Both the position numbers and the translations under genes were made by a program. Below the pieces are notes generated by a model that worked only from the letters and a program-made list of their open reading frames with translations, was not told the origin of the DNA and did not search any database. This document shows positions 3,899-31,716 of a stretch of DNA of 32,000 nt, piece by piece. Each line of letters begins with the position of its first letter. The stretch's first letter is position 1. The DNA comes from Trichlorobacter lovleyi SZ (lineage in GTDB: Bacteria; Desulfobacterota; Desulfuromonadia; Geobacterales; Pseudopelobacteraceae), in the NCBI RefSeq assembly GCF_000020385.1, contig NC_010814.1, forward strand, positions 2,070,001 to 2,102,000, in the 5' to 3' direction.

Positions 3899-4186
3899 CT
3901 ATGAGCAGGAAGAACCAAACTCAGGAGAAATTACAAAACCTTCTCGCATGCCTGAATTAACAAAATCAATCACCTGACCATCCAGGAAAGAGTTCAGGCT
4001 TTTTTCTGCAAGCAGCTCAATGCCGTTCAAAGTCATCCTGGTATCATTTTCACCCGGCTCATCCAGAGCCAGCCCCAGACGGGGGCCACCTCAACCAAAA
4101 CCTTCAAACACCACCCGCAGCAGCTTGCCGGGGTTCTGGGCCAGAATCGGCTCCAGAGCTGTCTTTGCCGCATCTGTAATCTTCAT
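3899..4186 (-). CDS. HesB/IscA-like small protein with in-frame TGA (candidate selenocysteine) at codon 32
   Basis: ATG 4186 lies 7 nt after AGGAG. The translation is MKITDAAKTALEPILAQNPGKLLRVVFEGFG[TGA 4093..4091]GGPRLGLALDEPGENDTRMTLNGIELLAEKSLNSFLDGQVIDFVNSGMREGFVISPEFGSSCS, ending at TAG 3901..3899, 96 codons in one frame. The TGA sits where Cys-containing HesB-like homologues have GFGCGG. The gene is absent from the ORF track, which only shows the antisense shadow 4020..4220. Confidence 0.7.
4056..4087 (-). promoter_or_regulatory. candidate SECIS region: two adjacent hairpins just 3' of the in-frame UGA
   Basis: In the minus-strand RNA, GGCCCC-(C)GUCU-GGGGCU spans 4087..4071 and GGCUC-UGGAU-GAGCC spans 4070..4056. 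The second loop is G-containing and lies about 26-30 nt after the UGA, within the spacing range usual for bacterial SECIS elements. Confidence 0.45.
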
Positions 4187-4205
4187 GACGCCGCTCCTTT
4201 GTAAG

Positions 4206-4223
4206 TATTCATATATTTGAATA
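4206..4223. promoter_or_regulatory. palindrome TATTCA-N6-TGAATA immediately upstream of the HesB-like gene's RBS
   Basis: Read on the minus strand: TATTCAaatataTGAATActtACAAAGGAGcggcgtcATG. The same ATTCA-N6-TGAAT plus ACAAAGGAG arrangement recurs at 29460..29484. Confidence 0.5.
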
Positions 4224-4265
4224 TAGCAAGTGGTTCTGACAAAAGCCAGAAAATTTTAATGGCAA

Positions 4266-4580
4266 TTATGACAAAAAAGAACAGCAGTAGTCAGATACGG
4301 TCTGGACCTTCATGGTGAAGGAAGAATTAGCGGGGACCTCAAACGACTGACCGCCGCCAATACGTCTCCAGCCAGTCTCACCGGCCAATTGCAGATCCAG
4401 TTCACCGCTCAGTATCTCCATCAGCTCAGCCGCGCCGGTGCTAAAGGTATACTCACCCGGTTGCATGATCCCCAGGGTCTTTTTGGAACCGTCTGGAAAC
4501 AGCACCGTGTGGCTTGCAACAGCTCCGTTAAAATAGATATTGGCCTCTCGAACAACGGTGACACCTGAAAACTCTGACAT
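4266..4580 (-). CDS. ppnP: pyrimidine/purine nucleoside phosphorylase PpnP (DUF1255/YaiE family)
   Basis: 104 aa. ...ANIYFNGAVASHTVLFPDGSKKTLGIMQPGEYTFSTGAAELMEILSGEL... lines up with E. coli YaiE/PpnP (GEYTFST core). Confidence 0.85.
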   Translation of the reverse strand: MSEFSGVTVVREANIYFNGAVASHTVLFPDGSKKTLGIMQPGEYTFSTGAAELMEILSGELDLQLAGETGWRRIGGGQSFEVPANSSFTMKVQTVSDYCCSFLS

Positions 4581-4706
4581 GCGTACACTCCTTGGATATT
4601 TGGATATGTCTTAAAAGGGGTGAAAGTCACCCTGAAACAGCTATGGTATAACGAGGATGCTGGCCGCATAGCAATAAAATGTATTTATTTCAGCGTGTTA
4701 CAAATA

Positions 4707-4759: not shown

Positions 4760-5053
4760 ATGAAACGGCTTATTTTCGCAATTACCGCATTACTGATCAG
4801 CCAAGCATCAGTGTCATTTGCAGAAGAACTTAAAATTGTCGGACCTGTTGTCAAGATTCAGGCCGAAGCCGGCAAGGCAACAGTCGTGATCAAAGACAAT
4901 GCAAGCGGAAAAGACGTTGCCATCATTGTCACTGACCAGTTGACGGTGGATAAACTTAACGACAAACGGATTACTACCGGCGATGAAGTACGGGTTAAAT
5001 ACGATAGCAAGGATAACGTCTCCAAACTGTTCAGAAAGACTGCAGGCTGCTGA
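4760..5053 (+). CDS. small exported protein of unknown function (signal peptide; ends ...TAGC)
   Basis: 97 aa. N-terminal signal peptide MKRLIFAITALLISQASVSFA|EE, strong SD, and a terminator downstream. I recognise no family. Confidence 0.7.
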   Translation: MKRLIFAITALLISQASVSFAEELKIVGPVVKIQAEAGKATVVIKDNASGKDVAIIVTDQLTVDKLNDKRITTGDEVRVKYDSKDNVSKLFRKTAGC

Positions 5054-28483: not shown

Positions 28484-29368
28484 TTACCGGCTTCTCTTTA
28501 CCATTGCCATAAACTCCAGCGCAGCCGGTGACAGGCTCTTGCCACGACGCCAGGCCAGATAAAAACTGCGATTAATCGTAAGCCCGCTGACCGTCAACTC
28601 GATAAGCGTTCCATCCGCCAGTTCATGCCCCACGGCAAGGGTGGATACAAAAGCTGCTCCTGCCCCGCTTAATACCGCACGACGAACTGCCTCACTGCTG
28701 CCAAGCTGGGCAACCACCCGCAGCCGGCGCGGATCTATACCGTTTTTCTGAAGCGCGCTATCTACTGCCGTACGGGTGCCCGAACCAGCTTCACGAATTA
28801 CCAACGGCAGCTGCGCGAGCTGATTGTACTCAAGAATGCCAACGGGGCTCAGACCGGGTCTGGCAACCAGAACGATCCGTTCGGTCATTACCTCCTGCAT
28901 ATTGATGCTGTCATCATCAATATGACCACCCACCACAGCCAGCTCAACCCGTTCATCCTGCAACAGCCTTATCACCTCATGGGTGTCTCCCTGCTGTAGT
29001 TCAAGGCGGACACCGGGCCAGGCAGTGCTGAAATGGCCCAGCATATCAGGAATTAAAAAGGCAGCCGGAATGGTACTGGCCCCTACCCGCAAGGTTGCCT
29101 GCTCAAGTCCCTGAAAGCGCCTGACCGCCTCAACAGCCTCACTACAATGCCGGCAGATCCCGGCTGCATGGTCATAAAAGAGCCGCCCGACCTCAGTCAA
29201 CGCAACCTGGCTTGCCGAACGATCAAAGAGGCGCACATTCAATTCATCTTCCAATGCCCGAATGTGCTGGCTCGCAGTGGATTGGGCCAGGCTGACGGCT
29301 TCACCTCCTTTTGAAAAACTGCGCGTATCGGCTACGGCCAGAAATACTTCCAACTGTTTCAATGTCAT
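28484..29368 (-). CDS. LysR-family transcriptional regulator
   Basis: The N-terminal wHTH MTLKQLEVFLAVADTRSFSKGGEAVSLAQSTASQHIRALEDELNVRLFDR is followed by a LysR substrate-binding domain. ATG 29368 with a GGTGG SD is preferred over the track's upstream TTG at 29392. It is divergent from the rhodanese operon. Confidence 0.88.
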   Translation of the reverse strand: MTLKQLEVFLAVADTRSFSKGGEAVSLAQSTASQHIRALEDELNVRLFDRSASQVALTEVGRLFYDHAAGICRHCSEAVEAVRRFQGLEQATLRVGASTIPAAFLIPDMLGHFSTAWPGVRLELQQGDTHEVIRLLQDERVELAVVGGHIDDDSINMQEVMTERIVLVARPGLSPVGILEYNQLAQLPLVIREAGSGTRTAVDSALQKNGIDPRRLRVVAQLGSSEAVRRAVLSGAGAAFVSTLAVGHELADGTLIELTVSGLTINRSFYLAWRRGKSLSPAALEFMAMVKRSR

Positions 29369-29459
29369 AGGGCCACCTATCCAAATAATCAATTTATTCT
29401 AACGCTTTTCTACCAGATTATCTATTTGCCAGGCAAGCATACAAATTGGTATCAAATAC

Positions 29460-29475
29460 ATTCATTTTTTTGAAT
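29460..29475. promoter_or_regulatory. palindrome ATTCA-N6-TGAAT immediately upstream of the rhodanese RBS
   Basis: The sequence is cATTCAttttttTGAATACAAAGGAGaatcattcATG. This is the second of only two copies of this palindrome in the window; the other is at 4206..4223. Confidence 0.5.
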
Positions 29476-29492
29476 ACAAAGGAGAATCATTC

Positions 29493-29909
29493 ATGTTAAA
29501 AAAAATTGCCCTGTTTTTTGTTCTCAGCATTGCCTCTGCCACGGTTGCCCTGGCTGCCAATTATATTGAACCACAGGAGTTGAAAGAGCTTTTTGACAAG
29601 AAAAAGCCGGTTATTCTGGTGGATATCCAACCTGCAACTGATTTTGAGGTGCAGCACCTGCCCGGTTCAATTGAAACCAACGCCTTTCCGGCCAAGACAG
29701 ATGAAGATAAGGCACGTCTGGATAAGGCGTTGACCGTCATTAAGGCATCAAAAGACCCGGTTGTGGTGGTCTGCCCCCGTGGTAAATCAGGTGCCAAAAA
29801 CAGCTACCAGTACCTTGAATCAAAAGGCGTGCCTGAAGACCGGATGCAGATTCTGGAGGGTGGCATTGCAGAATGGCCCTTCAAAGAGCTGTTTGTAAAA
29901 GGCCGTTAA
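29493..29909 (+). CDS. exported single-domain rhodanese-like sulfurtransferase
   Basis: 138 aa. Signal peptide MLKKIALFFVLSIASATVALA. Rhodanese fold with the active-site loop VVVCPRGKSG. Confidence 0.8.
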   Translation: MLKKIALFFVLSIASATVALAANYIEPQELKELFDKKKPVILVDIQPATDFEVQHLPGSIETNAFPAKTDEDKARLDKALTVIKASKDPVVVVCPRGKSGAKNSYQYLESKGVPEDRMQILEGGIAEWPFKELFVKGR

Positions 29910-29944
29910 CCCTGAGCAAGCGACATCAAACTAATCGGGCGTCC

Positions 29945-30988
29945 ATGGCAGATATGGCTGCCAACTGCACCTCCTGCGGTGAATGTGTGCGCCCCTGCAG
30001 CTTTCTGCAGCACCAGGGCACTCCATTAACAATAGCGCAACAGGGGGCAACCGACCGCAACCTGCTTGCTGCCTATGGCTGTTCCTTATGCGGCCTGTGC
30101 GATGCTGTCTGCCCGGAGGGACTCTCACCTTCCGATATGCTGCTTGGCATGCGTCAGGAAGCGGCAACACGCGGCTTGACGGATCTGAAAAAATACGCAC
30201 CCTGGCTCAACTATGAGAAGCTGGGGGCATCCCTGTTCTTCCGGCGGGATCTGATCCCGACCGGTTGCACCACCGTTTTTTTCCCGGGCTGTTCTTTACC
30301 CGGCACCAGACCGGATGCAGTGCTAGAGCTGTTCAAGCGTCTGCGCCTGATGGAACCAACCGCCGGCCTGGTTCTGGATTGCTGTGGTAAGATATCCCAT
30401 GACCTGGGATTAACAGACCATTTCACCGCGCTCTTTGGACGGTTGTCAAAACGGTTACGGCACAAAGGTATCACCCGTATTCTCACCGCCTGCCCCGGCT
30501 GCAGCAAGATTCTGCGTAACCATGGAGAAGAGTTTGATGTTACCAGTATCTATGAGGTGCTTGCTGCATGCACCGCACCCTCACGTCCTGCTTCTCCACT
30601 CAAAGTCGTGACCATCCATGATCCCTGTCCGGCCCGGTTTGATCCGGCACAGCAAGCCGCTGTCCGGCAACTGGTACAATCTTGCGGGTACCGTATTGAA
30701 GAACTGCCCTCCCACGGAACAACCACCCGCTGTTGTGGCCAGGGAGGTATGGTGGAAGGCTGCGTGACCAGTACCATCAAGCAGGAATCCGGGGTTATTG
30801 CTGCCGAAGCTGCCGGTCGCCCGGTTATTTCCTCTTGTGCATCCTGCAGTGATAGCATTACAACAGCAACACCGGCAGGCCATGTTGTTGACCTGTTGTT
30901 CAGTAAGACCGATTTTTCTGCTAAACCGGTCTCATCGGCCAGACGCTGGTTGAACCGTCTTAAACTGAGATGTGCGAGACTGACATGA
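29945..30988 (+). CDS. (Fe-S)-binding oxidoreductase subunit: 2x[4Fe-4S] ferredoxin motifs plus two CCG domains (HdrD/GlcF/LutA-like)
   Basis: CTSCGECVRPC and CSLCGLCDAVCP are followed by FFPGCSLPG...LDCCGK and IHDPCPARF...RCCGQGG. I prefer ATG 29945 (MADMAAN...) to the track's 29873 start, which overlaps the rhodanese gene by 37 nt. Confidence 0.8.
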   Translation: MADMAANCTSCGECVRPCSFLQHQGTPLTIAQQGATDRNLLAAYGCSLCGLCDAVCPEGLSPSDMLLGMRQEAATRGLTDLKKYAPWLNYEKLGASLFFRRDLIPTGCTTVFFPGCSLPGTRPDAVLELFKRLRLMEPTAGLVLDCCGKISHDLGLTDHFTALFGRLSKRLRHKGITRILTACPGCSKILRNHGEEFDVTSIYEVLAACTAPSRPASPLKVVTIHDPCPARFDPAQQAAVRQLVQSCGYRIEELPSHGTTTRCCGQGGMVEGCVTSTIKQESGVIAAEAAGRPVISSCASCSDSITTATPAGHVVDLLFSKTDFSAKPVSSARRWLNRLKLRCARLT

Positions 30989-31716
30989 ACATTCAACCAT
31001 TTTCAAGACACTTCAGGCTTCAAAAACTGGTCTTATGTTTAGTCTGGGAATCCTTTCCTTCCTCTGTAGTTCTGCGGCTCTGTGTTGCAATTTTGTTTTG
31101 CTTTGCATTTTTTTGTGTGGAGCCGGCCTTGGCAGACGAAGTCGCCATATCCCGCTTTGCAACAGAAGGACTCAAGGGCTGGGAGTCCAAGAGTTTCAAA
31201 GGCAGCACTGACTACACACTGGTGCAGGAAAACGGTCGCACCGTACTGAAGGCCCATGCCAAATCAGCTGCATCAGGCCTGTCAAAAAAGATTGCATTTC
31301 AACCTGCTACCTACCGCTATCTCAAGTGGAGCTGGAAAATATCCAATACCATTGCTCAGGGCAATGAAAAGAGCAAACAGGGTGATGACTATGCTGCCCG
31401 GGTCTATGTCGTCTTTCCAGGCCGGTTCTTCTGGCAGATGCGAGCCTTAAACTACATCTGGGCCAACAAACTGCCCAAAGGCGAATTTGTCCCCAACGCC
31501 TTTACCTCCAATGCCATGCTGATTGCAGTCGAATCCGGGCCGTCAAAAGCAGGACAGTGGGTTGCTGAAGAACGTGATATCCTGGCTGATTTTCGCCGTG
31601 TGTTTGGCGAAGAGCCGCACGAAGCAGGCGCCATTGCAATCATGACTGATACCGACAATACCGGTGCAGAGGCCACTGCCTGGTACGGAGATATCATCCT
31701 CTCGACAAACCGCTGA
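30985..31716 (+). CDS. DUF3047 domain protein with an N-terminal signal/anchor
   Basis: [16 protein letters not shown]...[17 protein letters not shown]...LKWSWKI...[14 protein letters not shown] matches the DUF3047 pattern. ATG 30985 overlaps the upstream TGA (ATGA). Confidence 0.75.

Follow-up and report, generated by a model that had tools for sequence, protein, structure and literature searches.

SqrR, an ArsR-family persulfide sensor of Rhodobacter capsulatus, represses its target genes from sites that lie over promoters, and its published operator has the core 5′-ATTCxxxxxxxxGAAT, as in ATTCACAACTCGGAAT; the imperfect site ATTCATATTCTCATAT is bound too. Reduced repressor binds the box and persulfide releases it, and the regulator gene is often a neighbour that controls itself. 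The Escherichia coli homologue of SqrR, YgaV, binds over the ygaVP promoter, where ygaP encodes a rhodanese. We found no description of a SqrR system in Geobacterales in the literature. A LysR subfamily linked to selenium, LysR_Se, was proposed by Lin et al. from gene neighbourhoods; in bacteria it is known from comparative genomics alone, and no operator was given for it (PMC5322559). Here we compare with these systems a palindrome, ATTCA-N6-TGAAT, that the original prediction had placed in front of two genes in a 32-kb stretch of Trichlorobacter lovleyi SZ DNA (hereafter, the window), one gene encoding a HesB/IscA-like selenoprotein and the other a rhodanese at the head of an operon divergent from a lysR gene. 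The protein encoded by this lysR gene matches NF040786, the NCBIfam equivalog 'selenium metabolism-associated LysR', which we equate with the LysR_Se subfamily (PMC5322559). The features discussed below are collected in Table 1.

Scanning all 32 kb of the window revealed two exact copies of ATTCA-N6-TGAAT, one before the HesB-like gene (site 1) and one before the rhodanese gene (site 2), just as the original prediction had it. Dinucleotide shuffling of the window (n = 100) gave a mean of 0.05 copies, in agreement with the earlier estimate of well under one copy per 32 kb, and two copies arose in 0 of the 100 shuffles. Matches with 1–2 mismatches were found at the level of chance (18 in the window versus 17.8 expected), with G+C-rich spacers and at positions outside the HesB-like and rhodanese upstream regions. 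Copy 1 grows to a 6+6 repeat, TATTCA-N6-TGAATA, at 4206–4223. The similar placement that had been noted for the two copies was borne out, as the dyad ends 20 nt before the ATG at site 1 and 17 nt before it at site 2; the two transcription units that carry them lie 25 kb apart and are both selenium/sulfur-related. Because the pattern had been spotted post hoc, we ran a family-wise test in which the 80-nt regions upstream of 31 genes were subjected to 1,500 mononucleotide shuffles and any common 5+5 inverted repeat with an equal spacer of 2–10 nt was scored. Such a repeat appeared in 2.5% of the 1,500 shuffles, and in 0 of 1,500 when the spacer was restricted to 6 nt. The coincidence of the two copies is unusual, not overwhelming.

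The same motif was followed into related DNA. Within 896 kb of fetched loci, mostly from Geobacterales, the exact motif was confined to orthologues of both sites and one unrelated match (L023), and the relaxed form ATTC-N8-GAAT occurred 13 times in the intergenic DNA of these loci, 12 of them at orthologues of the two sites. A search of 342 kb of Trichlorobacter-clade DNA with the relaxed pattern yielded no third site beyond the two orthologous groups and a few isolated matches. One isolated relaxed match, in Oryzomonas (L035, 14753), lies upstream of an unannotated 196-aa open reading frame (ORF) and does not recur. The sets of relatives used for site 1 and site 2 had no contig in common.

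Table 1. Positions in the window of the two dyads and of the genes and signals around them.
Feature	Position	Strand	Basis or remark
HesB/IscA-like selenoprotein gene, 95 codons, in-frame UGA at 4091–4093	3899–4186	−	Translation, Pfam PF01521
ACAAAGGAG, Shine-Dalgarno context of HesB-like gene	4194–4202	−	(A)AAGGAG alone kept in orthologues
Dyad copy 1, ATTCA-N6-TGAAT (= ATTC-N8-GAAT)	4207–4222	.	Exact match
Inferred extended −10, TGCTATATT, HesB-like promoter	4220–4228	−	Conservation in alignment A1; overlaps upstream arm of dyad 1
lysR_Se gene, divergent from rhodanese operon	28484–29368	−	NF040786, 269 bits versus cutoff 250
Candidate LysR_Se box TATCCAAATAATCAAT, T-N11-A dyad	29378–29393	.	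Distinct from the ATTCA-N6-TGAAT palindrome
−35-like TTGCCA within near-palindrome TTGCCAGGCAA	29426–29431	+	TTTGC...CAA block in ~25 loci; invariant in alignment A2
Inferred extended −10, TGGTATCAA, rhodanese promoter	29447–29455	+	Conservation; ends 4 nt ahead of dyad 2
Dyad copy 2, ATTCA-N6-TGAAT	29460–29475	.	Exact match
ACAAAGGAG, Shine-Dalgarno context of rhodanese gene	29476–29484	+	Orthologues vary outside AAGGAG
Rhodanese operon as a whole	29493–31716	+	Three genes
Rhodanese gene	29493–29909	+	Pfam/NCBIfam; hydrophobic N-terminus, signal-peptide-like
CCG/4Fe-4S HdrD-like protein gene	29873–30988	+	Pfam/NCBIfam
DUF3047 protein gene	30970–31716	+	Pfam/NCBIfam

At site 1, the HesB-like gene is flanked by a Ppnp gene (4266–4580) and a convergent metG. 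The encoded protein matches the NCBIfam models IscA_HesB_Se and TIGR01911, each under its cutoff; the in-frame TGA is kept in every orthologue read, with conserved protein sequence beyond it, and a G+C-rich hairpin, GGCCCC...GGGGCU, lies closely 3′ of the UGA. In place of this gene, gene callers report two shorter ORFs, one of 31 aa and one of about 60 aa. Relatives were collected by anchoring on Ppnp homologues and by a metagenome scan with the HesB-like protein, which together gave 13 distinct lineages (alignment A1). In A1, the sequence TATAT is invariant in 13 of 13 lineages and preceded by TGn in most of them, and both the AAT of the gene-proximal arm and the GGAG of the Shine-Dalgarno sequence are invariant as well. 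A consensus promoter scan did not call the extended −10 promoter that this conservation suggests, because its −35 element is poor. From such a promoter, transcription would start near 4213 (−), with dyad 1 spanning about −9 to +7.

Dyad 1 itself is intact in 6 of the 13 lineages, which between them carry four spacers (AATATA, ATAATA, GATATA and AAAACA), and degraded or absent in 7: one mismatch is seen in L070/L071 and two in L060/L074, and the dyad is entirely gone from L077, L052, L054 and L104, that is, from L077 and from lineages with a TudS gene between Ppnp and the HesB-like gene. By a hand count over the 10 best-aligned rows of A1, about 12% of spacer cells and 5% of arm cells were changed. 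With arms and spacer so close in conservation, the constraint may extend over the A+T-rich promoter segment as a whole. The intervening TudS-like gene (PF04463, with or without DUF1722) is found in L052, L054–L056 and L104–L106 and is truncated in L054–L056; in these lineages different A+T-rich palindromes stand in place of the dyad, AAATTATATATATAATTT in L052 and GAATATATTC in L104. In L068, a TudS-like gene follows Ppnp, and there is no HesB-like gene at that place.

At site 2, we compared the divergent regions of lysR_Se genes. A genome scan with the LysR protein returned 51 loci, and 43 divergent regions, those of 42 loci and of the window, entered the comparison. A dyad of the form AT[CT][GC]-N7-[CG][GA]AT was found in 28 of the 43, at a distance of 9–23 nt from the start of lysR, and the box in the window is the sole zero-mismatch match to this clade pattern anywhere in the window. 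Further from the lysR start, a TTTGC...CAA block follows at 55–61 nt in about 25 of 43 loci, and TGnTAT at 77–83 nt in 17 of 43 regions (the window and 16 loci). We read the order of these elements as an ancestral layout of LysR box, activation site/−35 and extended −10, in which the block around TTGCCA is the probable LysR activation-site region; the T-N11-A box, TTTGC...CAA and TGnTAT at their fixed offsets are thereby a candidate operator/promoter architecture for the LysR_Se family. The rhodanese promoter, too, went uncalled in a consensus promoter scan, because the scan demands T at position 6 of the −10. With the −10 hexamer at 29450–29455, the transcription start is expected near 29462 (+), which would place dyad 2 at about −2 to +14; the registers of the two dyads relative to the −10 differ by ~7 nt.

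Dyad 2 has a narrower distribution than this layout: ATTC-N8-KMAT at +90 to +92 is present in 11 of the 43 regions, namely the window and 10 loci, all of the Trichlorobacter clade. An alignment of 11 lineages reaching down to 60% LysR identity (alignment A2) showed that the ATTC of dyad 2 is invariant, conserved as strongly as the −10 and −35 blocks, and preceded by four variable bases; the TAT of the −10 is likewise invariant. The right half of the dyad reads GAAT in five lineages, GCAT in four and TCAT in two, and the spacer is variable save for its T-rich centre. The outcome of phylogenetic footprinting, which the original prediction had called for, is therefore divided: the motif is kept in several lineages at both loci, but in others the dyad is degraded or lost. 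The claim of an identical Shine-Dalgarno context is not supported: ACAAAGGAG does follow both dyads in the window but is unconserved in orthologues save for AAGGAG. The orthologues read ATAAAGGAG, GCAAAGGAG, TCAAAGGAG or TTAAAGGAG at this position, and the ACA ahead of AAGGAG is unconserved in A2; selection thus acts on the ordinary AAGGAG alone. On these alignments, the identity of ACAAAGGAG is demonstrably a coincidence laid over an ordinary AAGGAG; a third exact copy stands at 2878–2886.

The functional surroundings of site 2 bear on whether the two loci belong together. In T. thiogenes (L003 1260–9876, −), the genes for the rhodanese, the CCG/4Fe-4S protein and the DUF3047 protein are followed on the same strand by those for MsrA, MsrB, an FAD oxidoreductase, a fatty-acid hydroxylase, a DedA-type protein, YedF and SelD, the last two identified as yedF (TIGR03527) and selD (TIGR00476). 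Because this string reaches yedF and selD, and because the LysR protein is selenium-associated, a selenium/sulfur link between the loci is reasonable; together with the retained TGA of the HesB-like gene, this makes plausible the link that had been predicted. The window stops short of the stretch equivalent to yedF/selD; its rhodanese is 99% identical to a T. lovleyi protein. For SelD of T. thiogenes, gene calling gives two overlapping ORFs, perhaps through a frameshift. In the window, the longest CCG/4Fe-4S ORF overlaps the rhodanese gene by 37 nt (29873–29909), and in most related contigs its start is called 72 nt later, past the rhodanese stop (853 versus 781); the true start of the CCG/4Fe-4S gene is uncertain.

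The explanation that we tentatively prefer, while allowing that it may well prove wrong, is that the 16-bp ATTC-N8-GAAT dyad serves as the DNA operator of a dimeric repressor whose gene lies elsewhere in the genome and whose specificity is SqrR-like. Both copies match the core of the sqr box exactly, in letters as in geometry, and the published examples of this box also begin with ATTCA. Both dyads overlap or directly follow the conserved TGnTAT, and would thus lie across the start of a putative sigma-70 promoter with an extended −10, a placement that, on the predicted starts, would resemble that of SqrR and YgaV sites over the promoter or start of the genes they repress. A dimer sitting there would obstruct RNA polymerase or prevent its escape from the promoter. 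The known targets of these repressors include sulfur-trafficking genes, such as sqr for SqrR and, in E. coli, ygaVP with its rhodanese YgaP, and the rhodanese-CCG operon fits this persulfide-handling type. A repressor bound over the start would agree with the layout of both loci and, at site 2, with the function of the genes in sulfur transfer. The other target differs from those of the SqrR system, being a Sec-containing HesB/IscA-like protein, and no such selenoprotein is a described SqrR target. At the rhodanese operon, the repressor would add a second, Trichlorobacter-clade-specific layer of control over an older LysR_Se-dependent promoter. Among known operators the sqr box is the nearest, and the signal could accordingly be sulfane sulfur, or a selenium species if the analogy extends so far.

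In favour of an operator, each locus keeps one ATTC/GAAT half unchanged in all of the 11–13 lineages compared; against it, the right half of dyad 2 is GCAT or TCAT in 6 of 11 lineages, the two dyads differ in register relative to the −10, and searches brought to light neither a candidate regulator, be it in the window or within ~1 Mb from related loci, nor a third site in 342 kb. The difference from the SqrR system lies here: binding is a prediction, and no cognate ArsR-type regulator turned up nearby. No ArsR/SqrR/BigR-type gene is present in the window, and tblastn searches of ~1 Mb of fetched loci with YgaV and HlyU found no SqrR-type regulator, the sole match being a CadC in the unrelated L085. 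This CadC was set aside as a regulator, since its gene neighbours that of a HesB homologue of the Cys type among arsenic/cadmium resistance functions. Searching plasmids with YgaV returned no Geobacterales. The likeness to the sqr box also carries a look-elsewhere cost, as an 8-base consensus was matched out of many known motifs. Moreover, the blh-bigR promoter of A. tumefaciens pAt3 (L093 1050–1100) carries an A+T-rich palindrome, TTATATAATATATTATAA, instead of ATTC-N8-GAAT, so this core is not a hallmark of the SqrR/BigR family, within which operators seem to differ. A P. putida 'sqrR' described in a selenite paper was rejected as a parallel, being a sigma-54 regulator and not of the ArsR type.

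A more specific version of the repressor reading, which we regard as speculative and on balance unlikely, is that in Trichlorobacter a persulfide- or perselenide-sensing SqrR-like repressor has been recruited onto the HesB-like promoter and the LysR_Se-controlled rhodanese promoter, so that a single operon would combine a response to reactive sulfur or selenium status with selenophosphate sensing.

The foremost rival to a shared operator is a chance likeness between A+T-rich promoter/leader segments that are under separate constraints (from a −10 element, the region of the start site, a leader whose A/U richness favours translation, and the Shine-Dalgarno sequence), with no common factor binding both; we consider this possible, if rather doubtful. 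The family-wise frequency of 2.5% leaves room for it, as it covers just one of the classes of pattern that a reader might spot. At site 1, the upstream arm of the dyad overlaps the invariant TATAT, and its variable bases (T56 and C57) all lie outside TATAT, while the near-equal conservation of spacer and arms is what a constraint on the promoter segment as a whole would leave. At site 1, 5–7 of 13 lineages have lost the dyad, and at site 2 it is imperfect in 6 of 11; the missing third site, the missing regulator and the coincidental identity of ACAAAGGAG all lean the same way. Against chance, all 11 lineages keep the ATTC of site 2, although it is part of no known promoter element and its neighbours vary; several site-1 lineages have swapped the spacer and yet kept both arms; ~0.9 Mb of related DNA contains hardly any further copy of the motif; and the two genes are functionally related. 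Should the dyad be coincidental, the rhodanese locus would be an ordinary LysR-controlled operon, with no further consequence.

The original prediction had named the divergent LysR as the obvious candidate regulator. LysR_Se might bind the palindrome at both loci and so co-regulate both units, for example if its dimers slide and the palindrome is a distal subsite of low affinity, but this we hold to be improbable. The regulator is a bona fide selenium-associated LysR divergent from the rhodanese operon, and dyad 2 falls within the lysR–operon spacer, as a LysR_Se/HrsM-type site would. Some LysR-type regulators contact the −10 region, as at site 3 of BenM. Furthermore, the left half of the LysR box is ATTCA in the distant loci L021, L034 and L042 and ATCCA in the window, so half-sites resembling ATTCA do occur in this family. 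The geometry nevertheless differs, with ATTCA arms and a 6-nt spacer in the palindrome against ATTGA/ATCGT and a 5-nt spacer in the family box. The palindrome had been called loosely T-N11-A-like, whereas its spacings are T-N10-A and T-N12-A. Neither dyad lies in the region from about −80 to −20 of the promoter where LysR sites are placed, dyad 2 being downstream of the conserved −10; its centre is ~82 bp from that of the box, which exceeds the usual footprint of a LysR tetramer, and the conserved block between box and dyad already occupies the position of an activation site. Conservation separates the two elements as well, since the palindrome is confined to one clade (11 of 43 regions, versus 28 of 43 for the box) and is missing from 32 of 43 LysR_Se regions, which even so keep box and promoter. 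The role of LysR operator is instead probably filled by the separate T-N11-A box.

Site 1 gives this reading no help either. We saw no LysR-type box or activation-site-like block at the HesB-like promoter, and a scan for LysR boxes near the HesB gene found only a tandem ATATCCAA repeat with 3 mismatches (4591–4606, −), at the Ppnp ribosome-binding site; the similarity of this repeat to the left half of the LysR box in the window is probably due to chance. The notion of one regulator binding both sites thus survives in so far as the two motif copies are real and such a pair seldom arises by chance, but LysR is not supported as its binder, and a repressor encoded elsewhere is the better reading.

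The original prediction had offered a shared 5′-leader hairpin as the alternative to a protein-binding site, and a 5′-proximal stem-loop that stabilizes the transcript or tunes ribosome access is, of the explanations considered, the one to which we give very little credence. The whole of dyad 2 is probably transcribed, the innermost pair at site 2 is changed on both sides in L006 (A-U to G-C), and the isolated 18-mers fold better than their own shuffles (z = −2.2 and −6.2). Yet as RNA the stems amount to −2.2 to −2.8 kcal/mol, the z-score of the hairpin in its 44–46-nt context is +0.46 and +0.18 for the two sites, no better than shuffles, and the minimum-energy fold at site 2 is a structure other than the dyad hairpin. 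The L006 change is the one compensatory pair, set against several uncompensated breaks, as in the frequent variants GCAT, TCAT and ATTTA. An Rfam search gave no match, and at site 1 the arm farther from the gene falls on the −10, so that it would be mostly untranscribed.

Other motif classes could be dismissed. The ARG box of ArgR reads TGAAT-N4-ATTCA and usually occurs in tandem. The pentamers TGAAT and ATTCA are the same, but here their order is everted, the spacer is 6 and not 4, and none of the target genes has a link to arginine. Nor does the dyad work as the point where tandem ARG boxes would join, its flanks matching the missing half-sites at 0–2 of 5 positions. A sigma-54 promoter was rejected because the GG...GC spacings are wrong at both sites, and the Fur box and sites for Rex, CRP/FNR-type regulators, IscR and ModE because arm order and spacing misfit their consensus sequences; ModE-like TATAT repeats occur at site 1 only.

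To our knowledge, the transcriptional control of selenium utilization in bacteria is almost undescribed. If the dyad is a real operator, it would tie a HesB/IscA-like selenoprotein to a sulfur/selenium-transfer operon, point to a second sensor beside LysR_Se and provide a testable handle on the role of the HesB-like selenoprotein; were the recruitment of an SqrR-like repressor true, it would be the first defined cis-regulatory link of a bacterial selenium regulon. A more solid lead than the dyad may be the conserved T-N11-A box that, with its promoter architecture, adjoins 28 of 43 lysR_Se genes.

A further ORF in the vicinity of site 1 deserves mention. At 4760–5053 (+), the window encodes a protein of 97 aa with a hydrophobic N-terminus and a C-terminal Cys, and several relatives carry a 97-aa ORF in the equivalent position beside Ppnp. 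The protein has no Pfam match; its weak NCBIfam match (E = 5e-4, below cutoff) is to ExtJ, a selenite/tellurite-reduction operon protein.
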